Source: Chlorobiota bacterium (lineage in GTDB: Bacteria; Bacteroidota; Ignavibacteria; Kapaibacteriales; UBA2268). Taken from it: DNA of 64,000 nucleotides. Each line of letters opens with the position of its first letter. The first letter of the stretch is position 1. This document shows, piece after piece, positions 1,479 through 40,035 of this stretch. The position numbers were made by a program, and so were the translations under genes. The stretch lies in the NCBI GenBank assembly GCA_034670025.1, contig JAXMOE010000003.1, positions 16,708-80,707 on the forward strand, written 5' to 3'. The notes under the pieces were generated by a model. That model did not search any database and had not been told where the DNA came from. It was given only the letters and a program-made list of their open reading frames with translations.

Positions 1479-1483
1479 GAGAT

Positions 1484-1510: not shown

Positions 1511-1706
1511 ATCTATTTCATATAATTACTATTGCTTACATCGTTTTGCAAATGTAGTGCAGCCGGTGGTAATTCCAACTCACTACCTATCTACACCTCT
1601 CGTACACATATATTCTACCTTGGTTTTGTTAGGGCTTTTTGAGTGGGATGGGGGGATGGTATTGTTGATTGGGGTGTGTTGATTTCTATAGTAAGATATT
1701 TTTAAA

Positions 1707-22896: not shown

Positions 22897-23030
22897 TTCT
22901 GTTTTTACGTTTTTATGTATAAATAAACACGAAAGTTAACCTTATTTCATTTCTAAAACAATAGCAAAGTAATTACTCACTTGGCAAAATCAATAGCCGA
23001 AACAGGTTAGCTTACATATAGCCAGTGCTT

Positions 23031-23354: not shown

Positions 23355-23436
23355 TGAAGTACGCTCATAATATTTTATTATATTTGTAGTTATTACGTTG
23401 TTGAGTATTAACTATTGCTGGTAATAATAAAAGAAA

Positions 23437-24333
23437 ATGGCTATTAAACCGATGAATATTCTAATTACTGGTGCTACTGGAAATGTTGGCAGACAGGTAG
23501 TTCGTTACCTAACTGAAATAAATGCCAAAAGAAATTTACAGTATCAGGTCAAAATAGCTGACAGAGATATTGATAGGGCGAAAACGACATTTGCTAATGT
23601 TGACAACCTTAGCTTTAGGCACTTCGATTTTGACGATAGAACCTCATTTAAGGAATCATTTGACGGTATAGACATTATGTTTTTGCTCAGACCACCACAA
23701 ATATCAGAAGTTGACAAATATTTCCGCCCACTTTTTGATGAAGCCAAGAGCAAGGGAATAAGAAAAATTGTCTTCTTATCGGTGCAAGGTGCTGACAAGA
23801 GTAAGGTAATTCCCCACAATAAGATAGAAATATTGATTAAAGAATATGGTTTTGAATATATATTCGTAAGGCCAAGTTATTTTATGCAAAACCTGACTAC
23901 CACTTTGCTCAATGAAATAAAAACCAATAGCACAATTACGCTTCCTTCGAGCAATGCTAAGTTTAATTGGATTGATGTCAATAATATTGGCAGATGTATA
24001 GCAGAGCTAATTGTGTCATTCGATAATTATTCTAACCGAGTGATAACTATAACAGGTGAAGAGAATTTAGACTACTCCGTTGCTGCTTCTTATCTGAGTG
24101 AAGAGTTAGGAAGAGAAATAAAATTTAAGAGCGTAAACCCAATAAAATTTTACTTTTTGAAGAGAAAACAAGGAATAAGCAGCGGATTTGCAATAGTTAT
24201 GACCATACTGCACTTCCTACCTCGTCTGCAAAGCGAACCCAAAATAACTGACAATTATTACCTAATAACAGGTGAAAAACCTACATCACTCAAAGAATTT
24301 ATACCGAGAGAAATAGTTCAGTTTAAACCATAA
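23437..24333 (+). CDS. NmrA-family NAD(P)-binding protein
   Basis: ILITGATGNVG, RPSYFMQNL. Confidence 0.9.
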   Translation: MAIKPMNILITGATGNVGRQVVRYLTEINAKRNLQYQVKIADRDIDRAKTTFANVDNLSFRHFDFDDRTSFKESFDGIDIMFLLRPPQISEVDKYFRPLFDEAKSKGIRKIVFLSVQGADKSKVIPHNKIEILIKEYGFEYIFVRPSYFMQNLTTTLLNEIKTNSTITLPSSNAKFNWIDVNNIGRCIAELIVSFDNYSNRVITITGEENLDYSVAASYLSEELGREIKFKSVNPIKFYFLKRKQGISSGFAIVMTILHFLPRLQSEPKITDNYYLITGEKPTSLKEFIPREIVQFKP

Positions 24334-24371
24334 CCGTAGGCTGTCAAATATAATAAAACCCATAAATTGGT

Positions 24372-24407
24372 AAAAAAAAATCCCACTACTAACAAAAGAA
24401 GCGGGAT
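24372..24407 (-). terminator. Intrinsic terminator after the 236-aa secreted protein gene
   Basis: A-run plus ATCCC...GGGAT hairpin. Confidence 0.55.
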
Positions 24408-24433
24408 ATTACGTAATTAATTTGTAATTTTAC

Positions 24434-25144
24434 TTAGTCTTGTGGCCCGAATGGGAAACCCGATTCATGATTCAATATATAAAAGTAACTACCCGTTTTC
24501 AGAAGTATTATGAATTCACCACCATCAATTACTGGAAAATGGTTTTCATTTACATAAGTCAATTCATCATCACTAAAATTTGCGATATAATAAAGTGTAT
24601 TAGTGGGTAGTCCAGGAAACAAATCATCTTCATCAATTGTTAAATTACCTTCACCCGTGTAAACCATAATGTTTGATGTAAGTATGTCACCCAAATTATC
24701 TGCAGTTGTAAACTCTTCAGAATTTAAACTAAGATTACCATTGTTATAAGTATTCCCTTCTATAGTTACGTCTCCTTTTACTTTCAAACTAGAACTAATA
24801 AGCCCCATACGAGCAGAAAGGTCGATTAAGTAGTCCAATCTGTACTGAGCAACTACTGTTCCATTGTCCATTACGTTTACTACGTGAGAAGTAGTTACCG
24901 AAGCTTCTAAAATATCTTCCCATTCAGAATCACCATCACCTACAGAAAAGATGATTAGACCAGAAGAATTTGGCTCAGTTACTTCTATTTCTGATTCGTA
25001 TATTGCTGGTCCTGACCCCTCTGTTACAGAAACAGATAAGTTTTCACCATTGTCGTAGTTCACAGCCACAACTATTGGGCTAAGCGAGTAAGCCATTGTT
25101 GTAGAGGCAATAGCTAATGCAATTATAATTAAAATGTTTTTCAT
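24434..25144 (-). CDS. Secreted hypothetical protein; N-terminal domain paralogous to the 1530-aa fibre-like protein
   Basis: Signal peptide; SLSPIVVAV/NSSGLIIFSVG/EWEDI/NGTVVAQYRLD aligns with SLEPTRVSV/DDNGVITVNVG/EWDAI/NGALFSQGRVD. Confidence 0.7.
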   Translation of the reverse strand: MKNILIIIALAIASTTMAYSLSPIVVAVNYDNGENLSVSVTEGSGPAIYESEIEVTEPNSSGLIIFSVGDGDSEWEDILEASVTTSHVVNVMDNGTVVAQYRLDYLIDLSARMGLISSSLKVKGDVTIEGNTYNNGNLSLNSEEFTTADNLGDILTSNIMVYTGEGNLTIDEDDLFPGLPTNTLYYIANFSDDELTYVNENHFPVIDGGEFIILLKTGSYFYILNHESGFPFGPQD

Positions 25145-25205
25145 AAGACACCCTATATTTTATTTATTTAAACAATTATCCACAAATTTAAGGAAAAGTA
25201 ATTGA

Positions 25206-26315
25206 CTAAACAACCAAATCTTTCTTCTCATAGCCATATTTTTTTATCCAGTATTCTTTAGCAAACTCTATGGCACCACTATCTAACAGCTTCAAATCTC
25301 GGTCTAATCTGGTGTCTATGTCTTCCAATTCCTCTCTAAATTTGAACTTTGCCTCCAATGGCTTACCGTAATTCAGCTCTGAAACATAGCTAATCAGCGT
25401 GTTTACAGCTTCTTCTACCAACAGCTTATCTGCAAGTACTAACTCTTCCCTTATCTTATAGTGAGTTTCTGCCGCGGCTTTGCTACTGTTGGTCACATCT
25501 GTTGTAAGCGTTTGCGATAGTATTGCTTTCGATATTTCCTTGTTGCTGAGCTTTATCATCTCATTGTACAAACGGACGGAGCTATACCTATGCGGTTCCG
25601 CTATTTCTATATCAATGTCATTCGGTGTAACTATCACGCTGTCTTCTGTCATATTTGCAAGGTGTTCAGCAAGCGAATTTGCTTCATTCTGCGTAGCACC
25701 TCGGGTGTATTTGCCTATTAGTATCGGCATTCCGTAGCGTTCCATAAAGTTCACCCAAAACCGCATTCCTCCATTCTTGAACTTTACTGGCCAATAGCAC
25801 TTAGACAACAATGCTATGCCATAAGGATTCTGATAGCCAGCTCTGTAACGCAAGTCCAAGAACTTATACTTCGGTAACGCCACTCCCTTGGTCTTCCCTG
25901 CTGCGCGGTATTTCAACTCCGATTTGGTATCAATATAGAACAGCTCTTGCGGCTTTGCTATTGTGGCATTGGGCAATATCTGACCTTTCACTTTCTCCCA
26001 ATATATCTCAATCGGCTGAAATCCAAAAAGGATAGAGTCCTGCACTTCGTCTATTAGCTTTTCCATCTTTATTTCATTGAGCAAACTCGCCGCCAGTTGA
26101 TTGTCTTCCCCCACTATATCGTATTGTGTGGATAGCACTCCACTCTTCCGTGATTGCACACAGCTCCACAAGTGTGGATCATAAAGCAATTCCCTATACC
26201 CAGAGTACGTCGTTCCTGTCTTTCTCAATATCATATCGGGATTGGGCACTGCATCCATTATGCTCTGCCAACCGTCATTGCCTATGCTGACTACTTCTTT
26301 ATACAAATCATTCAT
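25206..26315 (-). CDS. Mu gp29-like phage portal protein (DUF935)
   Basis: PNPDMIL...YRELLYDPHL, NPYGIALLSKCYWP, WVNFMERYGMP, EISKAILSQTLTTD, AAETH. Confidence 0.9.
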   Translation of the reverse strand: MNDLYKEVVSIGNDGWQSIMDAVPNPDMILRKTGTTYSGYRELLYDPHLWSCVQSRKSGVLSTQYDIVGEDNQLAASLLNEIKMEKLIDEVQDSILFGFQPIEIYWEKVKGQILPNATIAKPQELFYIDTKSELKYRAAGKTKGVALPKYKFLDLRYRAGYQNPYGIALLSKCYWPVKFKNGGMRFWVNFMERYGMPILIGKYTRGATQNEANSLAEHLANMTEDSVIVTPNDIDIEIAEPHRYSSVRLYNEMIKLSNKEISKAILSQTLTTDVTNSSKAAAETHYKIREELVLADKLLVEEAVNTLISYVSELNYGKPLEAKFKFREELEDIDTRLDRDLKLLDSGAIEFAKEYWIKKYGYEKKDLVV

Positions 26316-26324
26316 TTTTCTCTC

Positions 26325-26726
26325 TCATTTACTTATTATAATTCCTAATAGCAATCCACCTGCAGCTGCAGCTGGTGTGTGCCACCAATCCTCTTTTTTA
26401 CAGGGAATGGCTATCGTCTTTACCTCACTATACACAGTGTCCGTAGCTAAGCGAATTGACATATTCATCTCGTTTTCGGGGTAGCTGTAGCTAACCATTA
26501 TTGTGTCTCGCTTATAAACCGTGTCAACCGTTGCTACAAAAGGGGCTGTCTTTATTATCGTGTCCCTTTTGTAAACTAACTTCGGTCTTACTTTTTCTAT
26601 TACAATCGGCGCTGGTTGTACAGTTATTGTGTCTCGAACTGTTGTTACTCTCACCGATGGATAGTACTCCTTAGTTAATAGCAGTGCCAACAAAGCCGAC
26701 ACCAACGCTGTTATTATATACTTCAT
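26325..26726 (-). CDS. Phage-type membrane protein, possible spanin-like lysis accessory
   Basis: N-terminal TM, repeated RDTI/DTV units, C-terminal hydrophobic WW...GGLLLGIII; sits in the lysis/portal operon. Confidence 0.5.
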   Translation of the reverse strand: MKYIITALVSALLALLLTKEYYPSVRVTTVRDTITVQPAPIVIEKVRPKLVYKRDTIIKTAPFVATVDTVYKRDTIMVSYSYPENEMNMSIRLATDTVYSEVKTIAIPCKKEDWWHTPAAAAGGLLLGIIISK

Positions 26727-26738
26727 TCTGTTCCTCCC

Positions 26739-28040
26739 TTATATCTCAGCATCTAACACATAGTGGCCACCAACGGACGACGTACTTATGCTAAATCCAG
26801 AATCATTAATCACCGTGAATGATTTCGCATTCTCATAGTCAACTGCCATTCCTACATTCACTCCTGTGCTTACCACCCAATAATCATTCACTGGTGGATC
26901 GGCGGATGATATTAGTTCAACCGATGGAGCTTTGTACATATCGCAATAGTGGACAGTGCCGACCACGTTGCCATTACTAATACCATAAGATGAAGCAAAG
27001 CTCACTTTCCCCTCATCCGTTTTCTTGTAAGGTGGCTCTGTTAAGCTATAACTCTTCTTATAAAACTGAAGACATTTGATAACCTCATCAACATAGTAAC
27101 CCTCTTTATAAGTTATATATGAACTGTGTTCTATTATTTGAGCATTGTTAATAGATATATACTCATCAGCACTTAGTCCCTCTATCCATAAGAAAATAGC
27201 TATGTTCTTAGCTCCACTACCAACACTAATGTCCTCCAGTTTCAGAGTCTGAAACTCACTACTCAATGTCACTTCATCGCTGATTGCATAATAGCTCCAA
27301 TCAGCTACCAAGCTCGGATTTGTACCGACTCCATTCCAATTGCTAACCACATCGCGAGTGGGTTCATCAGCATTCCCCTCCCAAGTGAGCAATGCCAATT
27401 TCGCTTTGGCAGTGCTATTGCTTTTAACATCAATAGAGAGAGACAAGCCATTACCCAAATACTGCTCCAAAAAGCGGTGAGGAACTATCTGTATTACTCC
27501 AAGCTTACCACTTGCTGTAGCTGTTAGTTTAGCTCCATCGTCCTCGATAGCAATTGGCTCACTGCTTTCGTTGAGTGCTAACCATCTGTCAGCAAAGAAA
27601 TCGCCATCATCACAGACCATCGACACCCTATCCAAAAGCAAACAAGTACCACTCAGCTCTGTGGTATTCGTCTCATCGCTTCCGGTGTTAGTATAGCTAA
27701 TGTGAGTGGCATCTACCTTAGTAATCTCAACACCACTTGGCTCATCGTAAGTGCCTGCACCCATATTCGTAATCTGTACCTTGTCCCCAGTTTGGTAACC
27801 GTGCGGTACTTCCGTTTCCAATGTCACCAGATTGCTCGTTCTCTCTCTGCTACTAATCTCCACCGGAGTGGCTACTCTTTGCCACACACTAAAGTTTGAA
27901 TTAATCAGCAAGTTCTGCTTCTGTTTTGCAGCTCCTGTTTTCTCATCTATCAAGTCTATCAAATCATCTTGGCGTTCTATATCGCCTTCCAAATTGCCCC
28001 AGACTTGTTCGCCCAGTGGCGGAAAATAACTAAACGGCAT
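26739..28040 (-). CDS. Phage fibre/spike-like protein
   Basis: WGNLEGDIERQDDL N-terminal fibre motif; QNLLINSNFSVWQR and ADRW carbohydrate-binding-type fibre motifs; DEVIKCLQFYKKSY resembling the ELxxCQRYY fibre motif. Confidence 0.65.
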   Translation of the reverse strand: MPFSYFPPLGEQVWGNLEGDIERQDDLIDLIDEKTGAAKQKQNLLINSNFSVWQRVATPVEISSRERTSNLVTLETEVPHGYQTGDKVQITNMGAGTYDEPSGVEITKVDATHISYTNTGSDETNTTELSGTCLLLDRVSMVCDDGDFFADRWLALNESSEPIAIEDDGAKLTATASGKLGVIQIVPHRFLEQYLGNGLSLSIDVKSNSTAKAKLALLTWEGNADEPTRDVVSNWNGVGTNPSLVADWSYYAISDEVTLSSEFQTLKLEDISVGSGAKNIAIFLWIEGLSADEYISINNAQIIEHSSYITYKEGYYVDEVIKCLQFYKKSYSLTEPPYKKTDEGKVSFASSYGISNGNVVGTVHYCDMYKAPSVELISSADPPVNDYWVVSTGVNVGMAVDYENAKSFTVINDSGFSISTSSVGGHYVLDAEI

Positions 28041-28052
28041 AGCTCACCTCCA

Positions 28053-28391
28053 TTATTTATAGTACAAGTGGGCATCTACTCGACCTGATATTATCCCCAC
28101 TGGCACGTATTCTATTCTTAAAAATTTAAACATCTGTCTGATAACTATCAGCTCAGCATCGTCATAATTGTCAGCTGTTTTCAGCTCATATATCTTCTTG
28201 TACCCTGCATTGCTCATATCATTGGAGCCAGTCAGCACCAAAAATCCATTCAGCGGTCCAACTATTCCCTTCCAACTTATTTGCAGCGAATGGGCTTTCT
28301 TGTTTCTACCCTTCATTTCTGGAGCTATATCCACCCATTTGCTACTGTATTCCAGCCCTGCGTTGTGGCTGTTCATTAATCTCAATATCAT
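28053..28391 (-). CDS. Small beta-rich phage-type virion protein
   Basis: SLQISWKG...GFLVLTGSND...FKFLRIEY pattern; translationally coupled in the phage-like operon. Confidence 0.5.
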   Translation of the reverse strand: MILRLMNSHNAGLEYSSKWVDIAPEMKGRNKKAHSLQISWKGIVGPLNGFLVLTGSNDMSNAGYKKIYELKTADNYDDAELIVIRQMFKFLRIEYVPVGIISGRVDAHLYYK

Positions 28392-28972
28392 ATCTTCACC
28401 TTTCTAAATGTAACAACTCCCCTCATCATCAGCAGACCGAGTGGGTGGTTGACAAATCTCGTCTTCACTGCCACCCCTTCGCCGCCTTTCGTTTTTACGT
28501 TGAAGCCAATGGTCTCCACTATTCCCTTCCGCTTCGTTCTCAGCACTCGCTCTATGTGACCAGACCAACTGTTCTTCGATTTCCAAACAATCAGATCGTG
28601 TCTTGCTATATCGCGGCTTACCAATCTGCCATTTCGCTTAGCGTGGTTGTATATACCATTTGCCACCGCCGTCCGTTCTATCGGAATAGCACTTTTGGGC
28701 ATTCCCAACTCTTCCGCTCCTTTGCTAAAGCTCCAATAAACTCCTGCCGCACAGTAAGGATAGCCCTCGCCCAAACCAACGGTAGCTAAGTATTTACCCA
28801 CTTCGCCTCGGTTGTCCTTTTCCTCCATTGTGCCAATTTGCGATAGTGTATAGCGTTCCGAAGTAGTGAGCAACCGCTCATCGCAGTCCAGCTCATACAT
28901 ATCAAAAGAGCAGAGTGCAGCCGCTAAGAGAACTGAACCAGATAAACGCCAAGCACCGTAAAGCCAACGCAT
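28388..28972 (-). CDS. CHAP-domain peptidoglycan hydrolase (endolysin-like)
   Basis: EKDNRGEV..YL, PYCAAGVYW (Cys), DLIVW...SGHIERV (His), ETIGFN. Confidence 0.75.
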   Translation of the reverse strand: MRWLYGAWRLSGSVLLAAALCSFDMYELDCDERLLTTSERYTLSQIGTMEEKDNRGEVGKYLATVGLGEGYPYCAAGVYWSFSKGAEELGMPKSAIPIERTAVANGIYNHAKRNGRLVSRDIARHDLIVWKSKNSWSGHIERVLRTKRKGIVETIGFNVKTKGGEGVAVKTRFVNHPLGLLMMRGVVTFRKVKI

Positions 28973-29199
28973 ATATGCACCCCCAAGAAAATATGTCCCA
29001 AATTTTGTGAAGCCACTCCGTAAGTAAAGTCAATCTGAGTGAAGCAATAGACCGCCAGAGCCGACAGCCCAACAGCCACCACTTCCACCATAATCATTAT
29101 CAGTAGGGTGTGGAGCTCTTCCACCCCTGGGGACAGAACGCCCCACGCCAACAGCATAATCCCTGCGAGCAAAGCGTATCTTGTCATTGGTCTATACAT
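28924..29199 (-). CDS. Holin-like small membrane protein (three predicted TM helices)
   Basis: About 90 aa, three hydrophobic segments, directly upstream of and overlapping the CHAP gene; start chosen at the ATG overlapping the 3' end of gp36 (track start 29229). Confidence 0.55.
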   Translation of the reverse strand: MYRPMTRYALLAGIMLLAWGVLSPGVEELHTLLIMIMVEVVAVGLSALAVYCFTQIDFTYGVASQNLGHIFLGVHICVGFTVLGVYLVQFS

Positions 29200-29644
29200 C
29201 GTCGCCCCCGAAATAAGAATCCATAACATTGCTATTATATATTCGGTTGTCGTTGGAACGCAAAGTAGTTATAGTAGGCGGTGAGTCATAGCCAGGAACA
29301 GCCCCACCCAAGTAAAGCTCACCCGATTGTATGTCCTCGAGCAGTTGGTTTGCCTCTTCGTAGTATGCCTTAATCTCTTCTGGTAGTGGCAACTCGCCAT
29401 ACTCTATTCGGTATAGGTGGTAGATAGTCAAGTCCGTGGAAATAGACATAATCAGCTCATCAGGCTCGGTAAAAGGTATGTCATACCTACCCAAAAGTGT
29501 TGCGTCTATGGTGGCATCGGCAAGCTCGCGTGCCAAATCCGTTCTCGCTGTGTCTATGGTAGTGCCTGTGTCGTCGCCAGTCAGCTTTGCTAGCTCTTCC
29601 GAGTTGAAGCGACCGAGTAGGTCTGTGTTTGTCGAATAAGCCAT
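29192..29644 (-). CDS. Mu gp36-like head-tail connector (DUF1320)
   Basis: MAYSTNTDLL.RF...EL..LT, ADATIDATLLGRYDIPF, DLTIYHLY, YEEANQLLEDIQSG; GGAGG RBS. Confidence 0.9.
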   Translation of the reverse strand: MAYSTNTDLLGRFNSEELAKLTGDDTGTTIDTARTDLARELADATIDATLLGRYDIPFTEPDELIMSISTDLTIYHLYRIEYGELPLPEEIKAYYEEANQLLEDIQSGELYLGGAVPGYDSPPTITTLRSNDNRIYNSNVMDSYFGGDDV

Positions 29645-29694
29645 CTTATTCGCCTCCGTTTACTATTATTTGGTTTATGATAATAGTATCAGTA

Positions 29695-29726
29695 GCGAAA
29701 GTATGGAGTTGGGTTTGCCCCTGCAT
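29695..29726 (-). promoter_or_regulatory. Putative promoter of the gp36-lysis-portal operon
   Basis: Minus strand ATGCAG-N17-TACTTT containing AACTCCATA, 50 nt upstream of the ATG; matches the motif at 35203-35234. Confidence 0.5.
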
Positions 29727-29780
29727 TAATGCGGTTTTAAATTTATATTTATATGGTATATCACTTATTCATTGAAGCTC

Positions 29781-30090
29781 ACTGAGCCTGTCGAAGTGAA
29801 CTTTAGTATTCAACCCCTAATGGTGTTGTTCTGAATATCCCATATGGATATAATATTAGTAGAGAATAAGTATTCAACCCCGATGGGGTTGGTTGCGGTG
29901 TTGTCAATCATTTGGCTACTAATATTTCGACTACGCTTAATACACTGTATTCAACTCCTACGGAGTTGGTGGGATGCTTACAAATATACCATTCTACTAA
30001 TGTTTGAACCCCTAACGGGGTTGGTGGGAACGCCTCCACTCACGCCAAGAGCGTGGCAAGCTCCGTCAACGCCAAGGCGTTGCCACCTAC
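29781..30090. repeat. Cluster of REP-like palindromes
   Basis: CTGAGCCTGTCGAAG at 29782; four hairpins of GT(A/T)TT(C/G)AAC(C/T)CC-loop-GGNGTTG type at 29806, 29870, 29947, 30002; GTAG-type palindrome CAACGCCAAGGCGTTGCCACCTAC near 30067. Confidence 0.65.
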
Positions 30091-30107
30091 GACACCGAGT
30101 AGGGATT

Positions 30108-30138
30108 AAAAAAAAAGCCCGACCAAATGGCCGGGCTT
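30108..30138 (-). terminator. Intrinsic terminator of the 1530-aa fibre-like gene
   Basis: A-run plus AAGCCCG...CGGGCTT hairpin about 30 nt after the stop. Confidence 0.75.
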
Positions 30139-30169
30139 GTGAATATTATGTTATGTGGTTGTTATGTGG

Positions 30170-33100
30170 TTAGAAAGTACCTATTATGTACCAGTCACCA
30201 TTTGTATCTTTTGTTACAATCCCACCTCTTACACCAGAGGCAGTACCATTTGAAGTACCATTGATATCATGAGTACCACTCGTGAATGCTATATGGACAA
30301 CAGAACCAGCAGGATAAGAATTAGGAAATGATGCAACATTAACATCAGCAGCTAAGAACAATACGTTTTTACCTGAAGCCACAGCTGTTGAATTAGAAAG
30401 ACCTAATTGACCTGTCATATCCAAATCACCTGAATTGTTAACAATGAAATTATTCCCACCAACTGTGAAGTTTTGATTAGTTACATCTAATCCTTGTGTC
30501 ATATCCGCAGCAGAATTTACAGTCAAAGTACCTTCGATTAAAGTATTACCACTTGGTTGAACTCTAAATGTTGTTGAAGGTGTATTATCACTCATTGTTA
30601 AATTTGCACCAGATATATCTACACCTTGTTCTACATCTAAGTTACCTTGTAAAACACCATTACCTGAAGTATTTACACTAAATACAGCACCAGCACCTGG
30701 ATCCAAAGTAATGTTACCAGATACATCTAATGCATCTGCAACTTCAACTGCATTACCACCAGAAGTATTCTTTAACGGAACTTGCAAATCTAAATCATTG
30801 TTACCTGTAATTACGATATCAGCATTAGTACCATTTAAAGCAGTATTAATTGTTTGACCACCGTCGTAAGCAACTTGTAGAGAAGTGCTACCCCAAGAAA
30901 GTACACCATTACCATCAGTGATTAACTGTTGGTCAGCAGAACCGTCAGCAGCTGGAAGAGTCCAAACTACATTAGTAGCAACTACAGCAGGAGAAGTGAA
31001 ACCAACATAGTTAGATTGGTCATCATCATTCAATCTCATATCACCGTCTATTCTAGCATTAGCACCTATGTTTGCATTATTACCAACATTCATATTGTTA
31101 GAGAAGAAACCACTTCTCCACTCACGAGTTGCAGAACCAATATCACGGTTATCAGCAGTAGCACTTGGAATCAAGTCAGAATGAATTCTACCAGTAACAG
31201 TAACTTCGTCAGCAGCAGCATCACCTAAATTAACGTTGCCGTTAAGAGTAGTGTTGCCATCAACGTTTAATCTAGCGTCTATGTCGGTACTACCTTGTAC
31301 AACTAATGCGTCATTAGTACCAGCTACATCACCTTCTACAGTTAATTGAGTTGCGTCATCACTATCACCCATAATAGAAGCAGCAGATTGAACGTTAATT
31401 CTACCGTCAACTTGTAAGCTAAGAATAGCAGTAGCACTTCCATTATTTTCGAAAGATAAAACTTGGTCAGCAGCATCATTTCTTTGTAAAGTGTTGTCCG
31501 AAATAATTAGATTTGGATTACCAGAATTAATGGTTAAGAATCCCTCTTCAATAAATACATCTGTATCACCATCGCCAGCAGCATCAAAATTAATTTGTGA
31601 GCTAGCAGCGTCGATAGTAACTTGAGCAGTAGTAGCATTATCAACATTGAAAGTAGCAACATCAGTATTGTAACCGATATTCAATTCTGCTGCACCAGCA
31701 CCAGCACCATTTGCTTCACCAATGTGAACAGAAGAACCTAATACATATAAGTCAGCCCATCTTTCTGCATCAGTACCTAAAGTAAATGCAGTAGCTGCAC
31801 CATTAGGTTGAATAGAAGAGTTTACTTTTGAGTTGAAAGTAGTTAAGTCAGTAACCAAATCATCACCTAAATTAACATTACCGTTTAGAGTAGTGTTGCC
31901 GTCAACATTAGCAGCATCATCAACTTGTAAATCATTACCAACATTAGCGTTGTTAGCTAACCATAAGTTTCTCCATTTGTCTCCAGCAGAAGAACCAATA
32001 CTCCAGTTGTTATCATAAGTAGGTAATAAGTGCGAACCAATATCGCCATTAATAATAACTGAGTCCAAAGAGTTAGTACCTAATGTAGTAAAACCTTCTA
32101 CGTTCAAAGAACCGTCAATATCGGCATCTCCTTGAAGAGCAAAATCATATATCATTGCATTATCAGGACTGATTACACCTTCTACAGTTAATTGAGCTGC
32201 ATCAGTACCATCACCGATAGTAGAAGCAGCAGATTGAACGTCAATTTTACCTTCTAAATCGATATTTAATACATTTCCTACACCAGCGTCAGTGTTGATA
32301 AAAGTCAATGTTTCAACTGTGGCATCGTTTCTTTCTACAGTAGCATCTGTGATAATCAAATCAGTGCTAGTACTATTGTCATCAGTATCAATAGTAAGTC
32401 CATTAGATCTAACTTCTAATACATTATTAGCATTAGCACCTAGAGGGTTTATAGAAACAACTTCTGCAGCAGCAGTTGCATCGATAGTTAACTGAGCGTT
32501 AGTCGCAGCATTAACTGTTAATGAACCAACGTTAGCAGCATAACCAATGTTCAATTCAGTATTACCTGCAGTACCACCTTCAGGTCCAACGTGAACTGAA
32601 TTACCCATAATATAAGCAGCTTGCCATCTTTTTGCATCAGTACCTAAAGTAAGAGCATTTTGAGCTTCGTCAGGAACTAAGTTAGAAACAAACTCGCCGT
32701 TAACTTGTATGTTATCTGTATCAGCATCACCTAATATAGTGTTGCCGTCAACTTTCAGTCTATTACCAACATTAGCGTTGTTAGAAAGTTGGAGATTTTG
32801 CCATCTGTTACCAAGAATACCTAAATCAAGTGTACCGTCAGTCATAGGAACTAAGCTAGTAGTAAATCTACCATTAGCAGCTATCTCATCAGTAACAGCA
32901 TCACCTAAATCAACATTAGCGTTTAGAGTAGTGTTACCATCAACGTTTAATCTAGCGTCTATGTCAGTGCTACCTTGTACAACTAATGCATCGTTAGTAC
33001 CAGCTACGTCGCCTTCTATTGTCAATTGAGTTGCATCAGCAGCGTCGCCCATAGTAGAAGCAGCAGATTGAACGTCTAATTTACCGTCTATAGTTACGTC

Positions 33101-34762
33101 TAATACACCAGCACCGCCGTTTACAAGACCTAAAGTCTCAGTATTGGCACTATTTCTTCCAACTGTAGATTGAGTCAAAGATAATACTGTTCCAGAAAGA
33201 ATTCCATCAGTATCAACATGAAGACCATCTTCTGCTATGAACACGTTACCAAAACCTTCGCCAGCAGGGTCAAAAGTAGTAACTTCCGAGCCAGTAGTTG
33301 CGTCTATAGAGAATTGAGAGCCAGTAGGATCGTTTACTTGGAAGTTAGCAGTGTTCGAATTGTAAAATACTTCTAATTCAGTATCATTACTCGCACCGTC
33401 ATCTGGACCAATATGAAGAGATTCATCTAAGTAAATGCTTCTCCATCTGTCAGAATCTTGACCCAAATCATTGTTGTTAGTAGGAATGATATCTGTATCA
33501 ACCCATCCGTCAAAATTAATTTCGTCATCAGAATTGTGACCTAAATTAATAATTGAATTCGGAGTGTTTGTAGTTACATCTACTTCAAATGCTAAGTTAC
33601 TGTTAGCATCTTCTACAGTAAGATCGCCACCAGTTACATCAACGCCAGCAGTTGCGTCTAAGTTACCATTGATAGTGAATTGACCAGTACCAGTAGTTAT
33701 TGGTCCGTTATTAACCCATGCTGGGTTAGCAGAAGCAGTAGAGTTCAATAATAAAGTACCATCATTCGAGTTACCAATTATTTCTTCTACATTATATATA
33801 GTGTTATCATTCATATTGAAATCACCAGTAAGTGAAAAACCATCCACTTCTAAGTAACCCATTTTAGCATCACCATCAATAACTAATTCATATTCATTAA
33901 GATTAAGAACAGGTTGAGCAGTTTTAACACCTACTATATTTAATTTTGTAGCATCAGTACCAGGAGTAGCACCAATAACGTTAGCATCTTGAGTTGCTGT
34001 AAAAGCACCAGAGATTTCTAAAGGTTGGTTGCCGTCATTGATTTCAGCAACATTGTCTAATATTTTACCTTGTAAATTTACGTCAGTATCAGTAATAACC
34101 ATCATATCAACACCATCAACAGAAATTTCACCTTCGTTGTTAACATCATCATAACGGATAGCAAGAACTTCATCGCCAGCTGTAAGAGCATCATCAGCAC
34201 CCAAACCATCAGCAGGACCAACAAACACACCTCTATTAGCTATAGGAGCAGTGTTGTCAATTTCTTTTACAAAAAGTGCATCATGTCTTTGTCCATCATC
34301 ACCTATGTAAGAAGGATCAGAAGTCGGCACCAAAACACCATTTGTGTTGAAGATAGAAGTGTTAGCTTGTATAATTACTTGCTGATCTACTCTACCTTGG
34401 CTGAACAAAGCACCATTGATGTAAACATCAAAAGTCCAGAAAGTATTCATGTTAGCAGCTTCAATAGCATCCCATTCATTTTGCTTTGTTACATTAGCAG
34501 TACCAACATTAACAGTGATAACACCGTTGTCGTCAGCAGTAACTTCTGGGTCGCCAGCAGTAAAAGTGTTACCAGTGTACAAAGTTAAAGCACCACCATC
34601 GTAGTTAACCAAGTCAACTCTTACCGAAGTGGCAGGAGTACCAGCTTGATATTGCGGAGCGTAAACTGAAACTCTAGTTGGCTCTAAAGAGAGACCGGTA
34701 GAGATTGCCATCATTGTGACAGCGAGAAGTAATAATAGTTTTTTCATTGTGAAAAACCCCAT
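30170..34762 (-). CDS. Large secreted beta-repeat protein resembling phage tail fibres / trimeric fibre adhesins
   Basis: Signal peptide (likely start MKKLLL at 34747); recurrent xxP...LG....RW..LY motifs; NYVGFTSPAVVATNVVWTLPAADGSADQQLITDGNGVLSW fibre motif; about 280-aa internal repeats. Confidence 0.7.
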   Translation of the reverse strand: MGFFTMKKLLLLLAVTMMAISTGLSLEPTRVSVYAPQYQAGTPATSVRVDLVNYDGGALTLYTGNTFTAGDPEVTADDNGVITVNVGTANVTKQNEWDAIEAANMNTFWTFDVYINGALFSQGRVDQQVIIQANTSIFNTNGVLVPTSDPSYIGDDGQRHDALFVKEIDNTAPIANRGVFVGPADGLGADDALTAGDEVLAIRYDDVNNEGEISVDGVDMMVITDTDVNLQGKILDNVAEINDGNQPLEISGAFTATQDANVIGATPGTDATKLNIVGVKTAQPVLNLNEYELVIDGDAKMGYLEVDGFSLTGDFNMNDNTIYNVEEIIGNSNDGTLLLNSTASANPAWVNNGPITTGTGQFTINGNLDATAGVDVTGGDLTVEDANSNLAFEVDVTTNTPNSIINLGHNSDDEINFDGWVDTDIIPTNNNDLGQDSDRWRSIYLDESLHIGPDDGASNDTELEVFYNSNTANFQVNDPTGSQFSIDATTGSEVTTFDPAGEGFGNVFIAEDGLHVDTDGILSGTVLSLTQSTVGRNSANTETLGLVNGGAGVLDVTIDGKLDVQSAASTMGDAADATQLTIEGDVAGTNDALVVQGSTDIDARLNVDGNTTLNANVDLGDAVTDEIAANGRFTTSLVPMTDGTLDLGILGNRWQNLQLSNNANVGNRLKVDGNTILGDADTDNIQVNGEFVSNLVPDEAQNALTLGTDAKRWQAAYIMGNSVHVGPEGGTAGNTELNIGYAANVGSLTVNAATNAQLTIDATAAAEVVSINPLGANANNVLEVRSNGLTIDTDDNSTSTDLIITDATVERNDATVETLTFINTDAGVGNVLNIDLEGKIDVQSAASTIGDGTDAAQLTVEGVISPDNAMIYDFALQGDADIDGSLNVEGFTTLGTNSLDSVIINGDIGSHLLPTYDNNWSIGSSAGDKWRNLWLANNANVGNDLQVDDAANVDGNTTLNGNVNLGDDLVTDLTTFNSKVNSSIQPNGAATAFTLGTDAERWADLYVLGSSVHIGEANGAGAGAAELNIGYNTDVATFNVDNATTAQVTIDAASSQINFDAAGDGDTDVFIEEGFLTINSGNPNLIISDNTLQRNDAADQVLSFENNGSATAILSLQVDGRINVQSAASIMGDSDDATQLTVEGDVAGTNDALVVQGSTDIDARLNVDGNTTLNGNVNLGDAAADEVTVTGRIHSDLIPSATADNRDIGSATREWRSGFFSNNMNVGNNANIGANARIDGDMRLNDDDQSNYVGFTSPAVVATNVVWTLPAADGSADQQLITDGNGVLSWGSTSLQVAYDGGQTINTALNGTNADIVITGNNDLDLQVPLKNTSGGNAVEVADALDVSGNITLDPGAGAVFSVNTSGNGVLQGNLDVEQGVDISGANLTMSDNTPSTTFRVQPSGNTLIEGTLTVNSAADMTQGLDVTNQNFTVGGNNFIVNNSGDLDMTGQLGLSNSTAVASGKNVLFLAADVNVASFPNSYPAGSVVHIAFTSGTHDINGTSNGTASGVRGGIVTKDTNGDWYIIGTF
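31216..33074. repeat. Intragenic direct repeats in the fibre-like gene
   Basis: 31216-31394 is highly similar to 32896-33074 (offset 1680 nt); a third, more diverged copy of the QSAAS unit at about 32227. Confidence 0.85.
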
Positions 34763-34860
34763 ATATATTTATAAAAATTAAATGTTTTATTTCATTGTAA
34801 CATTATACAGCATACAAATTAACAAATTTGCACACAATAACAAGCAAACGCAGTAATTTT

Positions 34861-34882
34861 AGTGTGTAAATAACTACACACT
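34861..34882. promoter_or_regulatory. Perfect inverted repeat in the divergent intergenic region (possible operator)
   Basis: AGTGTGTA-aataac-TACACACT. Confidence 0.4.
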
Positions 34883-35114
34883 TTAACCACCGATTGAGAG
34901 TTGGATTAATTCATGCAATTTCCTTGCCAAAGTTGAGCTTAGAGCAATAATCTGAACACCTTAAGCTTATGTTGTCGAATTATTAGTTGTCTTGTGGCTT
35001 ATTTTTTTTCGGAAATACTGTTACTTCGTTGTAAATATTGATATTTGTGGAGTTATTTACTCAACTTTTTTTAGTAAATCCCCACATCTCATTTTTTCAA
35101 CTATGGGGGAGTTC

Positions 35115-35146
35115 AATCCCCCCGGCCCCCTTTATCAAGGGGGAGC
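35115..35146. repeat. REP-like GC hairpin
   Basis: AATCCCCCCGGCCCCCTTTATCAAGGGGGAG, a common intergenic palindrome type. Confidence 0.5.
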
Positions 35147-35202
35147 TTAAAGGAAGTCCTCCATAATAAATACCATACCAAAACCGTTTTAAAATAGTAC
35201 CT

Positions 35203-35234
35203 ATGCACATATACTGCTAACCCCATAGCTTTGC
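35203..35234 (+). promoter_or_regulatory. Putative promoter of the protease-capsid operon
   Basis: ATGCAC-N17-TAGCTT containing AACCCCATA and a TAnnTTTG element, 45 nt upstream of the ATG. Confidence 0.5.
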
Positions 35235-35279
35235 CTCACACTAAAATCAACAACCACAAACAAAAAGAGGTACACAACT

Positions 35280-36122
35280 ATGTGGATAGAAGTATTTCGG
35301 TCTGGGACACATACCGATTCGGGTGGCAACACTGCCACTTATACCAATGCAGATTTGGCTACGATAGCCAACAACTACAACACAGAGCTGAGCAAGGACG
35401 AAAGCAGCTTAGCCCCAATAGTCAAAGGACACCCAAAGACCGATGCGCCTGCTCTGGGTTGGGTGGGTCAGCTGAAAGTAAGTGGCGACAAGCTGTTGGC
35501 TAAGATAAAGCAGGTTTTGCCAGAGTTCGCCAATGAGGTGAAGTCAGGCAGATACAAGAAAGTTTCCATAGCACTTTACCCTGGCAATGTACTTAGGCAT
35601 ATTGGTTTTTTGGGTGCTACTGCCCCTGCTGTGCGTGGGCTGAAACCAGTAAGCTTTGCTGACAAGGGCGATTACGCTGAGTTCAGCACTGCACCGAAGC
35701 AGAGCCGATTGGAGCAATTAGAACAAGAGAACGCAGAGCTGAAAATGCAGATAGCAGAGAAGGACTCAGAGCTATTGGGTAAGCAAAACTCCGAGTTTGT
35801 AGCTCAATTAATTGATGAGGGCAAGGTAACGCCTGCACAAGCCACCATACTCAATGAGATATTGGACTGCGAATCGGCTGGAGGACAGTATGCCAAGGGC
35901 AAGTCGGTGATTGATTTAGTCAAAGAATTTGCCGAATCGGGCTGCCCCATTGGCGATTTGGAAGCGGAGTTTGCCGACAATAACGTGCCACCAGTGAGCA
36001 ATGAGTATGAAGGAAAACCCACAGAGCCAGAGAGGTTACAGCTACACAACCGAGCAATGACAATCAGCAGAGACAACCCAAACATAAGCTACGAGCAAGC
36101 ACTTATGCTTGCCACGGATTAA
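35280..36122 (+). CDS. Mu-like prohead protease with C-terminal scaffold region
   Basis: WIEVFRSGTHTD, APIVKGHPKTDAPALGWV, GRYKKVSIALY, LRHIGFLGATAPAVRGL; helical C-terminus ending SYEQAL. Confidence 0.9.
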   Translation: MWIEVFRSGTHTDSGGNTATYTNADLATIANNYNTELSKDESSLAPIVKGHPKTDAPALGWVGQLKVSGDKLLAKIKQVLPEFANEVKSGRYKKVSIALYPGNVLRHIGFLGATAPAVRGLKPVSFADKGDYAEFSTAPKQSRLEQLEQENAELKMQIAEKDSELLGKQNSEFVAQLIDEGKVTPAQATILNEILDCESAGGQYAKGKSVIDLVKEFAESGCPIGDLEAEFADNNVPPVSNEYEGKPTEPERLQLHNRAMTISRDNPNISYEQALMLATD

Positions 36123-36147
36123 TTCATTATAAAAATTGGAGACAAAT

Positions 36148-37089
36148 ATGTCAAAAAGAACCGATAATCTTAGAATGGTAGATCCCGTTCTGAGTACAAT
36201 AGCACAGGGCTACAGCAATAGCTCATTCGTATCGGAAGCACTATTCCCGATAGTAAATGTGAGCAAGAGTAAAGTGAAAATACCAGTTTTTGGTAAAGAG
36301 GCGTTTTACTTGCGAGGAGTTGATAGGGCGATAAGAGCGGAGAGCAACAGGATACCAGCGAGCAAAGTCAGTTTAATGGACTTTGAGACACAGGAGAAAG
36401 ACTTAGAAGTCGCTCTTGACCATTTGGAGCAAAAAGAAGCCCACAACTTAGAGCTATATATGAGCCAGGTAACTAAGACTTTGGCGGATGGAATATCGCT
36501 CAACAGGGAGAAGGAAGCGGCAGACATTGCCCAAGATGCCAGTAAGTATGCAGCGAGCAACAAGATAGTAATTACATCTGGAAATGCCTTCGATGATTAT
36601 GGTAACACCACTGACCCACTTGCAATAATCAAAGATGGAATGGAGGCAATTAGAAACAAGATTGGGAAGTTCCCAAACACTATGGTGCTGGGCGAAACTA
36701 CTTACAGAGTGCTGATGAGCCACCCCAAGATATTGGAGAAAATCAAATATTCTTCGCTGGGTAAGGCATCGAAAAGTATTCTGAAAGAGCTTACGGACAT
36801 AGACAACATTTCGGTAGGGCTTTCAGTTTACACTGATGATGGCGATGATTTTACTGATATATGGGCTGACAATATTGTCCTTGCCTATGTTGATAGCAGT
36901 GCAAAGGGCAACCGCTCGGAGTTCAACCCAAGTTATGGTTACACTTTCAGAAGAAAAGGAATGCCCGAAGTTGACACATACAACGAGAATGGCGGTAAGA
37001 TTAAGGTACTACGATACACGGATAACTACTCTGTGAATGTAACTGCAAACGATGCAGCTTACTTAATTTCAAACACAAACCACGAATAG
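36148..37089 (+). CDS. Major capsid protein (transposable-phage type, HK97-fold family)
   Basis: LRMVDPVLSTIAQGYSN, LFPIVNV, FGKEAF..RA, PNTMVLG, IWADNIVLAYV, PSYGYTF; GGAG RBS before ATG 36148. Confidence 0.9.
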   Translation: MSKRTDNLRMVDPVLSTIAQGYSNSSFVSEALFPIVNVSKSKVKIPVFGKEAFYLRGVDRAIRAESNRIPASKVSLMDFETQEKDLEVALDHLEQKEAHNLELYMSQVTKTLADGISLNREKEAADIAQDASKYAASNKIVITSGNAFDDYGNTTDPLAIIKDGMEAIRNKIGKFPNTMVLGETTYRVLMSHPKILEKIKYSSLGKASKSILKELTDIDNISVGLSVYTDDGDDFTDIWADNIVLAYVDSSAKGNRSEFNPSYGYTFRRKGMPEVDTYNENGGKIKVLRYTDNYSVNVTANDAAYLISNTNHE

Positions 37090-37105
37090 GAAAAGGAGAA
37101 AAATT

Positions 37106-37450
37106 ATGCCAATAAACAAAGCAACAAGCAGCCCAGTGCTGACACTAAGTCAAGTAGCAGGAGAAGATTTGCTCGCTTACAGAGCTATAAATTTTGATGG
37201 TGAACTAACGGATGACGGTGATGATTTTCTTGGTGTGACAGACTTGGAATGGAGAGAGGGCGAAATAGCATCAGCAATAGCACTAGGAGCCCCGATAATG
37301 GAAGCCAGTGGTGCAGTCAGCAAAGGCGACAACATTGTACTTGACACCGGTGGCAAAGCCAAAGCTTATGCTGGTTCTGGTGCAAAGATTGGCTTTGCAC
37401 TCAACTCAGCAGCCGATGGAGGATATGTGAAGGTGCTGATTAGGAAGTAG
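37106..37450 (+). CDS. DUF2190-family capsid cement/decoration protein
   Basis: YRAINFDG...LGV...EASGAVSKGD...IGFALNSAADGGYVKVLI; directly after the capsid gene. Confidence 0.85.
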   Translation: MPINKATSSPVLTLSQVAGEDLLAYRAINFDGELTDDGDDFLGVTDLEWREGEIASAIALGAPIMEASGAVSKGDNIVLDTGGKAKAYAGSGAKIGFALNSAADGGYVKVLIRK

Positions 37451-37473
37451 GTGATTTTTGTAATATAAATAGT

Positions 37474-37506
37474 AAGCTCAGTTGAATATTCGACTGGGCT
37501 TTTTTT
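37474..37506 (+). terminator. Intrinsic terminator of the capsid operon
   Basis: AGCTCAGTTGAA-TA-TTCGACTGGGCT hairpin plus T-run. Confidence 0.75.
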
Positions 37507-37588
37507 ATGATATTTAGTAACCTTTGCGAAAAATATTTATATTGCATATTGCATAAATTTAATAAAATGAAATCCGACTAAGACAAGA

Positions 37589-40000
37589 ATGAAATTATCA
37601 TACAATTGGCTAACAGAATACGTAGAAATACCAGTCACAACCGATGAGTTGGTAGATATACTAACGACTACTGGGCTCGAAGTAGAAGAAGTAACAGACG
37701 ACCGAAAGAAATTTGACGGCTTTTACACAGCACGAATCACAAAAATTGAGCCACACCCCGACGCAGACAAGTTGCAACTCTGTACCGTGGACTCTGCTAA
37801 TGGTGAGCAAACTGTAGTTTGTGGTGCACCCAATGTTAAAGTAGGGCAAAATGTAGTACTGGGAACTGAGGGTGCAACAGTGCCGTCGGCAGGATTCCAA
37901 CTATCAAAGCGTAAGATAAGAGGCGTAGAGTCCAACGGAATGATATGCAGCAAAATGGAGTTAGAACTCGGCGAAGACCACGACGGAATATGGGAATTGC
38001 CCGATGGAGTGGAGCCAAGCCAATCGCTTGCTGATTATTTAGAATTGGACGATGTCATATTTGAAATAGCAATAACCCCCAACAAGGGTGATTGCCTTAG
38101 CCATTACGGTATTGCTCGTGATTTGGCTGCTTACTTTGGTACAAAGGCGAAATTGCCCGACACAGCTCACAATTCAAACGAAACTGATGTTTCTGATTCT
38201 GTAGAAATAGAGATAGAGAACACCGAAGCTTGCCCACGCTATGCAGCAAAAGTTGTACGTGGAGTAAAAGTTGGAGAGTCTCCCGATTGGCTAAAGAAAA
38301 AGCTAACTGCCATTGGGCTTAGACCAATAAACAATGTAGTCGATGCTACTAATTTTGTACTAATGGAGCTTGGGCAACCACTCCACGCTTTTGACTATGA
38401 CTTAGTTGCAGGCAAGAAGATAGTAGTGAAAAATGCTACTGATAAACAGAAATTCACAACCCTCGATGACAAAGAACGCACGTTAGATTCAGAAATGCTA
38501 ATGATATGCGATGCCGAAAAGCCAATTGCTGTAGCAGGAGTTATGGGTGGTGGCAACTCAGAAGTATCGGACGGCACCGTAAATGTACTGATAGAGTCTG
38601 CATACTTTGCACCGAACTCAGTCCGCAGAACAGCCAAAAAGCTCGGCATCAACAGCGATGCTTCGTACAGGTTTGAACGAGGTGTTGACATAGATGCTGT
38701 GGAGTTAGCTGCCAACAGATGTGCTCAGCTATTGGAACAAGTAGCAGGCGGAAGCGTTGAACATGGAATAGTAGACAGCTATCCGAATAAGAAAGAAAAT
38801 ATTACAGTATCACTTAGGTACACCCGAGTAGAAAAAGTAATTGGTATTAAGTTAGAAAAAGCAAAAATAAACGAAATATTAACATCATTGAACTTCAAAT
38901 TAGTAAGTGATAACGATGAAAAAGCAGAATTTGAGATTCCTAACTATAGACACGATATAGAAGCTGAGATTGATTTGATAGAAGAAGTTATCCGTATGTA
39001 TAACTACGATAACTTAACTCCACAGTTCTTCGCTAATGTATCATTCGATTCAAGGAAAATGCCCAAGAAATTGGAAAAGCCACAAAGAAGAGATGAGCTT
39101 CGTCACTTCCTAATCAACGGTGGTTTCAACGAATCGCTAACACAAAACCAGATAGACCCTGCTTCGGCAGAGATATTTACAGAGTCGCCAGTGGTTGTCT
39201 CTAATCCTTTGGGACGTGATTTGTCTATTATGCGTCCGTCACTTATTCCGTCTATGCTCAGAGTAATCAGCAGGAATATAAGATTGGGAACAAGCGACTT
39301 ACAACTGTTTGAAGTTGGAAAATCATTCGAATCGAACGATGATGAAGGCAACACGGTAAAAGGGATAGAAGAGAAAGAAAACTTACTAATAGCTATTACG
39401 GGCAAAGAAGCACCGAGCAATTGGAGCATGAAAAGTACAGAAGTAAGCTATTATAATATAAAAGGTTTATTGGAAAATATAATAGAATTTGCTAAGTTGA
39501 AAAACATAAAGTTTAAGCAAGAAGCAACAGTTGGGTTTGGTGGCAATAGCTGCGGTATATACCAAGGTAAGAGTAAGCTCGGTCACTTCGGTGAGTTGGA
39601 CGTGCGAATACTGAAGCAATACGATGTGGAGCAGCCAGTATTTGCAATCGAATTAGATTTGACCAAGTTATATGAAATAGAAAAAGAGCCAAGCAAGTAC
39701 AACACTGTATCGGCATTCCCTTCTACAAGCCGCGATTTGGCATTTGTACTGGACGAAGGAACAGATGCAGGCAAGATACTGACTTTGATAGAATCGAACG
39801 GTGGCAAATACTTGAAATCTGCTGATATATTCGATGTATATACTGGCGACAATTTGCCAGACGGCAAGAAGAGCGTTGCATACTCTATGGAGTTTGTCTC
39901 CACAGAGCGAACGCTGAAAGATGCTGATATAGATAAGGTAATTGGTAAGTTGGTTAATAATATAGAAAACACCTTCAAAGCACAATTGCGTAAGTCATAA
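37589..40000 (+). CDS. pheT: Phenylalanine--tRNA ligase beta subunit
   Basis: HPDADKL, VVCGAPNV, ITPNKGDCLS, RPINNVVD, SYRFERGVD, DLIEEV, SRDLAF. Confidence 0.98.
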   Translation: MKLSYNWLTEYVEIPVTTDELVDILTTTGLEVEEVTDDRKKFDGFYTARITKIEPHPDADKLQLCTVDSANGEQTVVCGAPNVKVGQNVVLGTEGATVPSAGFQLSKRKIRGVESNGMICSKMELELGEDHDGIWELPDGVEPSQSLADYLELDDVIFEIAITPNKGDCLSHYGIARDLAAYFGTKAKLPDTAHNSNETDVSDSVEIEIENTEACPRYAAKVVRGVKVGESPDWLKKKLTAIGLRPINNVVDATNFVLMELGQPLHAFDYDLVAGKKIVVKNATDKQKFTTLDDKERTLDSEMLMICDAEKPIAVAGVMGGGNSEVSDGTVNVLIESAYFAPNSVRRTAKKLGINSDASYRFERGVDIDAVELAANRCAQLLEQVAGGSVEHGIVDSYPNKKENITVSLRYTRVEKVIGIKLEKAKINEILTSLNFKLVSDNDEKAEFEIPNYRHDIEAEIDLIEEVIRMYNYDNLTPQFFANVSFDSRKMPKKLEKPQRRDELRHFLINGGFNESLTQNQIDPASAEIFTESPVVVSNPLGRDLSIMRPSLIPSMLRVISRNIRLGTSDLQLFEVGKSFESNDDEGNTVKGIEEKENLLIAITGKEAPSNWSMKSTEVSYYNIKGLLENIIEFAKLKNIKFKQEATVGFGGNSCGIYQGKSKLGHFGELDVRILKQYDVEQPVFAIELDLTKLYEIEKEPSKYNTVSAFPSTSRDLAFVLDEGTDAGKILTLIESNGGKYLKSADIFDVYTGDNLPDGKKSVAYSMEFVSTERTLKDADIDKVIGKLVNNIENTFKAQLRKS

Positions 40001-40035
40001 ATTAATTATAATGTTATCAAAATAGAAGATACGAT

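Follow-up and report, generated by a model that had tools for sequence, protein, structure and literature searches.

The window analysed here comprises 64,000 nucleotides of contig JAXMOE010000003.1 (positions 16,708 to 80,707, forward strand) from assembly GCA_034670025.1 of a Chlorobiota bacterium of the order Kapaibacteriales, and it carries, at 25206–37450 and immediately ahead of pheT, a set of phage head and lysis genes that is called the module below. From the letters alone, this cluster had been predicted to be a domesticated Mu-like remnant encoding a gene transfer agent (GTA)-like particle. A listing of open reading frames (ORFs) and family scans placed all of the head and lysis genes named in that original prediction where they had been expected, all with open frames (Table 1). 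The minus-strand genes are transcribed in the order gp36, holin-like, CHAP-like, 112-aa, fibre-like, 133-aa and portal, and the protease, major capsid protein (MCP) and cement genes lie on the plus strand. Both predicted terminators, after the 1530-aa gene and between the capsid unit and pheT, are present, and the predicted lack of terminase, Mu F, transposase and tail genes within the window was likewise found.

Table 1. Features of the module and its surroundings; coordinates are those of the window unless a genome and contig are given.
Feature	Coordinates	Strand	Matches and remarks
Portal, Mu type, 369 aa	25206-26315	-	PF06074 2.2e-89; phrog_113
133-aa protein, hydrophobic N- and C-terminal segments	26325-26726	-	without Pfam, PHROG or NCBIfam match
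Fibre-like protein, 433 aa	26739-28040	-	phrog_4492 tail fiber 9.4e-05
112-aa jelly-roll protein	28053-28391	-	AlphaFold2 model, all-beta
CHAP-like peptidoglycan hydrolase, 194 aa, N-terminal hydrophobic segment	28388-28972	-	PF05257 7.3e-05
Holin-like protein, 101 aa	28924-29229	-	three hydrophobic segments read from sequence
Head-tail adaptor, Mu gp36 family, 150 aa	29192-29644	-	PF07030 3e-22; phrog_195 2.8e-26
Terminator of 1530-aa gene	30138-30115	-	10-pair stem, 7 G-C pairs, then T run; sets the gene apart from the gp36-to-portal unit
Secreted repeat protein, 1530 aa	30170-34762	-	no Pfam/NCBIfam family
Head maturation protease, scaffold-like C-terminal part, 280 aa	35280-36122	+	phrog_976 1.1e-65
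MCP, 317 aa	36136-37089	+	phrog_1005 7.5e-91; PF03864
Cement/decoration protein, 114 aa	37106-37450	+	PF09956 1.8e-05; phrog_673 8.8e-17
Terminator closing capsid unit ahead of pheT	37474-37501	+	12-pair stem, then T run
Orphan large terminase (TerL), 465 aa	G000:C3:186097-187494		144 kb from portal; intact, among host genes

The proposed Mu-type ancestry was borne out by the families of the portal and adaptor, by the protease with its scaffold-like part, and by the MCP, which is ~45% identical to the capsid proteins of phages BcepMu and phiE255 and matches PDB 3bjq at 1.6e-35. The portal, which shows 70 invariant columns in an alignment of nine genomes, is shorter by ~85 C-terminal residues than the 479-aa portal of a prophage in the same genome (G000), and gp36 is a single-copy gene without a paralog there. 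Three further runs of the study yielded contigs that agree with positions 22000–41000, with no listed differences; because these pieces span the gene junctions, mis-assembly is unlikely, which argues against the mis-join that had been named in advance as a refutation. In all three runs, contigs also diverge from the window at 27042 (in the fibre gene, near the C-terminal part) and at 34134 (in the 1530-aa gene), a hint that the population contains strain variants of these two surface-type proteins.

In other genera of the family, the module forms a single operon of ~5–6 kb in the order protease, MCP, cement, gp36, holin, CHAP, two small genes and portal. The operon of G012 encodes proteins of 289, 311, 112, 158, 118, 206, 116, 116, 137 and 316 aa followed by a 514-aa TerL, the gene of which overlaps the end of the portal gene, and it is flanked by host genes for a TonB-type receptor, a sigma-70 factor and a DUF4397 protein; the same order up to the portal was found in G015, in the complete genome CP058732 and in G022. 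Alignments confirm orthology between genera for four of the products, the holin-like, CHAP-like, 112-aa and 133-aa proteins. Because the genes form a single same-strand operon elsewhere, the diverging two-operon form, which the original prediction had taken as a feature of the system, is a rearrangement in the genus of the window. The accompanying premise that genes of Mu-like phages lie colinear on one strand fails here; the related phage-type clusters of this lineage, described below, are divergent too. Synteny with pheT holds only in G000, G003 and G005. Upstream host flanks are common to the species of the window's genus, and the flanking genes differ between genera. No shared promoter motif was evident by eye upstream of the protease gene, gp36 or TerL. 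In CP058732, a 547-aa ORF that lies downstream of the portal was considered as a TerL and rejected for want of any similarity.

The fibre-like gene is a genus-specific addition to the module: it was found in 8 of the 9 other genomes of the genus, in every case within the module, and across 15 further genera of the family nothing more than a match of 47 N-terminal residues, in G010, turned up. The protein shares 41% identity (E 6e-95) with a tail-fibre-like ORF (L018:13944-15200) of the prophage on contig C1 of the same genome, and it diverges faster than its neighbours (76% identity in G003, 44–46% in other species of the genus), a pattern consistent with the acquisition of a receptor-binding part from a phage that shares the host. 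Its AlphaFold2 model (mean predicted local distance difference test, pLDDT, 47.8) was too poor for a structure search. Lying upstream of the portal, this 433-aa ORF was also considered as a terminase, a candidate that was rejected after the PHROG match and the comparison with the prophage pointed to a fibre-like protein.

The 1530-aa gene is absent at the corresponding position in G004, G006, G007 and other genera; it is an insertion near G000 and G003 only, which interrupts the module and lies outside the conserved set. Its product contains repeated segments, each with a short Leu-Gly ... Arg-Trp motif that is, as read by eye, reminiscent of phage fibre repeats, and no tandem DNA repeat was found in the gene. 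A 236-aa gene downstream of the portal (24434-25144) was left out of the module; the N-terminal likeness of its product to the 1530-aa protein is weak (E 0.028). The gap between gp36 and the 1530-aa gene is occupied by four short hairpin repeats (window 29800–30030; CAACCCC, four bases, GGGGTTG) with the common lead GTATTCAAC, where contigs in public data end or form loops (loose ends: 29968 and 29994), in keeping with a dispersed repeat; a 109-aa ORF at 29844-30173 is probably spurious.

Among the lysis genes, the CHAP-like protein scores 23.6 bits against PF05257, below the 26-bit cut-off, and its profile gave nothing meaningful against solved structures (best E 0.67). Cys74 and His139 are invariant in all five aligned genomes, across genera, and 29 of 30 protein-atlas matches are CHAP clusters with scores of 0.96–0.97. 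The holin-like protein is without a family match in Pfam, PHROG and NCBIfam, and its C-terminal motif is kept in 7/7 aligned genomes. The 133-aa protein is conserved in the same place before the portal in 5/5 aligned genomes, and the atlas returns weak, unnamed viral clusters for it; from its sequence it is a candidate lysis accessory or spanin-like protein. The 112-aa protein, modelled with a mean pLDDT of 85, gave as its best PDB match, a weak one, the Carin1 capsid chain 8cjz_A (TMq 0.60, E 2.7e-3), as well as 19 BFVD matches at E<=1e-3, all small uncharacterised proteins of tailed phages, and, among proteins clustered at 50% identity, 187 representatives at E<=1e-3. The fold matches are weak jelly-roll likenesses. 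The protein is a candidate capsid decoration or other virion protein, the decoration role being a guess.

A search of the rest of the genome for an orphan terminase, proposed with the original prediction, located an intact gene among host genes. The genome has two Terminase_6 genes, one of which lies beside the portal of the C1 prophage; the other, the orphan (Table 1), has a PAS histidine kinase gene on one side and a glycosyltransferase gene on the other, and it encodes ATPase and nuclease domains with Walker A and Walker B motifs. The portal and TerL genes of G003 are ~10 kb apart, with the same host genes between them, and in G017, G024 and G010, TerL stands alone, each time in a different host context. 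As regards a small terminase, the 233-aa ORF adjoining the prophage TerL gene has no orphan copy in the genome, and a PF11985 search was silent, a weak blank given that the control was silent as well.

The distribution of the module was followed in 40 related genomes, 24 from the same family and 16 from ten other families of the order. The portal was found in 24/24 family genomes (with a paralog in G011 and fragments in G005 counted) and in 0/16 of the others, TerL in 23/24 and 1/16, the MCP in 21/24 and 0/16, and the CHAP-like protein in 22/24 and, weakly, 1/16. Among family genomes of at least 90% completeness, the MCP is present in 93 of 101, representing 41 of 44 genera, and the best match has at least 41% identity in 91 of the 93 positive genomes. 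An order-wide sample gave 40/43 family genomes against 4/107 from other families, the latter at 33–43% identity, and a class-wide sample gave 6/6 against 3/194. The patchy presence in relatives that would have spoken against domestication was thus not observed; nearly all genomes of the family carry the module, which occurs rarely and patchily elsewhere. The non-family match in G127 (G127:C8) and the second copies within the family lie in divergent clusters of phage type with long rows of ORFs. These clusters look like whole prophages; PHROG tail matches were obtained for the C1 prophage only, and the tail identity of the ORF rows of the other clusters was read from their layout. Because the second MCP of G105 is 40%, and its module MCP 82%, identical to the module MCP of G022, the second copies form a separate lineage.

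Inheritance was judged by comparing tiers of protein identity with those of PheT from two starting genomes, G000 and G022. Relative to G000, the identities in G003 are 90% for PheT, 92% for the MCP, 88% for the portal and 76% for TerL; the corresponding ranges are 68–72%, 81–82%, 60–63% and 60–63% in other species of the genus, and 44–52%, 48–61%, 40–52% and 41–46% in other genera. From G022, the MCP was found in 10/10 genomes of its genus, with identities of 71–82% in the nine others against 57–74% for PheT, and in other genera the MCP lies at 45–54% against 41–47% for PheT. In these identity tables, the module follows PheT from both vantage points, as the original prediction of host tracking would have it. 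The selection expected for a domesticated element is also apparent: frames are open in ~90 species, with protein identity reaching down to 41%, and the MCP genes of G000 and G003 differ mostly at third codon positions, the proteins being 92% identical and the DNA ~82%, the latter figure worked out from a pairwise alignment with a mean column identity of 91%. These comparisons indicate that the module is, as far as sequences can tell, vertically inherited and under purifying selection.

The same evidence bears on two further explanations. According to the first, the module would be a small prophage or satellite, mobile and spread more than once through the family, as the differing flanks between genera and the second related copy in some genomes might suggest; against this stand the tiers of identity matching PheT from two vantage points, the host genes between portal and TerL and the common upstream flanks in the window's genus, the lack of an integrase, transposase or tRNA beside the module, and the assignment of the second copies to a separate lineage within phage-type clusters with long ORF rows, so that repeated spread is very unlikely. 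The second explanation, a decaying prophage remnant without present function, draws on the deletions, stop codons and shortened TerL of some lineages and appears highly improbable in view of the open frames in ~90 species, the excess of protein identity over DNA identity, and the conserved catalytic residues and ATPase motifs. Both readings fit the data poorly.

No integration, transposition or tail gene is attached to the module, and the ORF lists of five genomes, among them G012, G015, CP058732 and G022, contain no tail genes in or beside it. No tRNA or Rfam match lies near the module, and a search for the Mu transposase PF02914 (DDE_2) was silent, again a weak blank, as the control was silent everywhere. 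Tail genes elsewhere in the genome, which the original prediction had suggested looking for, proved to be confined to two prophages: no sheath gene was found in the genome, and its two tape-measure genes and two Mu F genes belong to the prophages on C1 and C2. The C1 region (G000:C1:~272000-298000; L002, L017, L018, L133) is prophage-like with a divergent layout, in which TerL, the 479-aa portal and a Mu F-like protein are encoded on one strand, and the protease, an MCP of phrog_29, tail proteins, the fibre-like gene and a 1792-aa tape-measure ORF on the opposite strand; a gene similar to phosphoadenosine phosphosulfate (PAPS) reductase adjoins TerL. The portal of this prophage is 28–31% identical to that of the module. 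The second prophage-like region (G000:C2:~18000-45000; L134, L135) carries a 1274-aa tape-measure ORF, a Mu F-like match and a 532-aa ORF, possibly for a terminase from a different family.

The presence of two tailed prophages in the genome raises the possibility of tail piracy, in which the module would produce tail-less DNA-filled capsids that become infective only with tails from co-resident phages. The module keeps the head-to-tail adaptor gp36 without any tail genes, its fibre resembles the fibre-like gene of one prophage, and phage-inducible chromosomal islands of the capsid-forming type (cf-PICIs) are reported as releasing tail-less capsids that join phage tails (10.1101/2025.02.11.637232). 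Tail piracy is nevertheless judged unlikely: the neighbourhood of the module has no genes for an integrase, replication or induction, its inheritance is vertical and non-patchy, the genome is without a gp36 paralog, and the prophage heads belong to other families (the C1 MCP to phrog_29, with a C1 portal at 28%), and the adaptor may not fit their tails.

Taken together, these observations favour, at a probability of roughly 0.55, the interpretation that the genes form a domesticated head and lysis module of Mu/BcepMu type, vertically inherited in one Kapabacteria-type family and GTA-like in character. The module looks like a captured virus now used by its host, possibly to export DNA. From a Mu/BcepMu-type ancestor, the protease/scaffold, MCP, cement, gp36, holin-like, CHAP-like, jelly-roll, small membrane protein and portal genes have been retained, with the large terminase usually encoded elsewhere in the chromosome. 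The products of the module would assemble DNA-filled capsids. TerL would act in trans to fill them, perhaps irrespective of sequence, given that no small terminase was recognised; the holin and CHAP hydrolase would then lyse the producer cell and release the capsids. What emerges would be GTA-like, a particle lacking its own tail and, in the window's genus, equipped with a fibre taken from a phage that shares the host. That an independent domestication of a Mu/BcepMu-type phage has given rise to a working tail-less particle which moves host DNA between cells, by way of the borrowed fibre or the tails of resident phages, can be put forward only tentatively.

Measured against the classes of element to which it might belong, the module shares with GTAs structural genes that appear fixed, vertical and under purifying selection, the lack of replication, integration and excision genes, and dispersed parts; tail-borne delivery of DNA is not provided for by its genes, and delivery may take another route. 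It contains a Mu-like head module and not a complete Mu-like transposable phage, and the integrase, regulation, replication, mobility and patchiness of cf-PICIs and satellites were not found. Of the predicted GTA-like particle, the part that stood is therefore the set of fixed, vertical, phage-derived genes without genes for autonomy, and the parts that fell short are synteny with pheT, limited to three genomes, and the two-operon split as a defining feature. Most of the comparisons proposed alongside that prediction spoke for it. Another function for the host has also to be weighed, either interference with phages through decoy head parts and suicide lysis, or programmed lysis by which DNA or cell contents are set free for the population. 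A full lysis set (holin-like, CHAP-like and membrane proteins) lies within the conserved operon, related phages infect the same family, and retention across the family shows some benefit without showing which. Such a role is quite improbable, in that none of the 10 module proteins matches the PADLOC models of known anti-phage defence, and lysis or decoy action alone would leave the retention of portal, adaptor, cement and a two-domain TerL unexplained.

Several findings weigh against the interpretation as a domesticated, GTA-like module. No tail, head-closure protein or small terminase was recognised, the last being a weak blank given the silent PF11985 control. The MCP is without a match in 8 of the 101 family genomes, and genus g3 has a phage-type paralog only, or nothing. 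In G005, a clean deletion runs from mid-MCP to mid-portal and leaves the TerL and cement frames open. Internal stop codons occur in the MCP of G002, the portal of G017 and the CHAP gene of G013; TerL was not found in G013, the MCP of G104 is split, and the TerL locus of G015 is reduced to a 211-aa ORF with the ATPase part only. In five MCP-negative genomes, the portal was found in 0/5 and an intact TerL in 3/5, namely G056, G072 and G120, so that the linkage of TerL to the module is loose; because TerL is intact in three of five genomes lacking MCP and portal, it may have a use of its own, or the MCP-negative assemblies may have gaps. Nearly all of the genomes are metagenome-assembled, and some of these gaps and stops may be artefacts. 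The decay in sister strains that had been named as a refuting observation is consequently seen in part, the module being intact in most lineages and lost or stop-bearing in several.

G005 is a close relative with a 1.7-Mb genome, in which (G005:C11:~27000-30000; L040 16174-18992) the glycosyltransferase gene beside TerL appears split into ORFs of 218 and 108 aa and the large histidine kinase gene is missing, changes that fit a general genome reduction. Within the window itself, positions 1–4000 have a G+C content of 0.26–0.28, compared with 0.33–0.45 across the remainder.

No published description of the module was found in the literature on Kapabacteria, prophages and GTAs, with supplementary prophage tables outside the search. 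If the tentative reading of a working particle that moves host DNA is correct, the module would be the first GTA-type element of its phylum and the first to descend from a transposable phage, and it would match, on the chromosome, the tail-less capsids of cf-PICIs; a separate origin in a poorly known, uncultured family of the Fibrobacteres–Chlorobi–Bacteroidetes (FCB) group would widen the view of how often phage heads are captured. With about ten genes and no tail, it would be a very small GTA-type system, and one may ask how DNA is kept in, and delivered from, a capsid that has no tail. The size of the compact operon would allow expression in a laboratory host, and the intact, rearranged and lost copies of the module offer a natural series for studies of domestication. 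In the annotation of these genomes, the module could be miscalled an incomplete prophage.

Among known systems, GTAs of the type of Rhodobacter capsulatus (RcGTA), present in other Alphaproteobacteria too, resemble the module in consisting of phage structural genes that are fixed in the host, vertically inherited and under selection, in lacking integration and replication genes, in having dispersed parts, and, as predicted for the module, in a lysis-dependent release. RcGTA comes from a different phage stock and includes a small terminase, head-tail connectors and a tail. The module differs from it in having no tail or recognised small terminase, in its Mu/BcepMu ancestry, in the position of its lysis genes inside the head operon, and in its FCB-group host. 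Few GTAs have been studied, most of them in Alphaproteobacteria; a recent paper names those of Rhodobacterales, Desulfovibrio, Brachyspira, Bartonella, Caulobacter and Methanococcus voltae (PMC12946183).

Phages BcepMu and phiE255 share with the module a related MCP, a PF06074 portal, a PF07030 adaptor and an MCP gene that directly follows the protease gene. Unlike these phages, the module is without Mu F and tail genes, and no Mu transposase was found in it (by a weak search with a silent control); its portal is shortened, and its portal and TerL genes either follow the head genes downstream or have no linkage to them. The phage-type clusters of the lineage (G000:C1, G105:C1:~1-20 kb, G011:C25 and G127:C8) encode homologs of TerL, portal, protease and MCP at 27–47% identity, and that of G011 also carries, like the module, a CHAP-like gene within its structural operon. 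These clusters differ from the module in their patchy occurrence, their long further rows of ORFs and their portals of 479–506 aa; Mu F was confirmed in the C1 prophage, which also has a tape-measure gene, and the module has neither. The cf-PICIs have, like the module, their own capsid and packaging genes and no tail genes, and they are described as mobile, induced by a helper, packaging their own DNA and identical across species (10.1101/2025.02.11.637232). In contrast, the module is without mobility genes, is fixed in its family, and diverges with its host.

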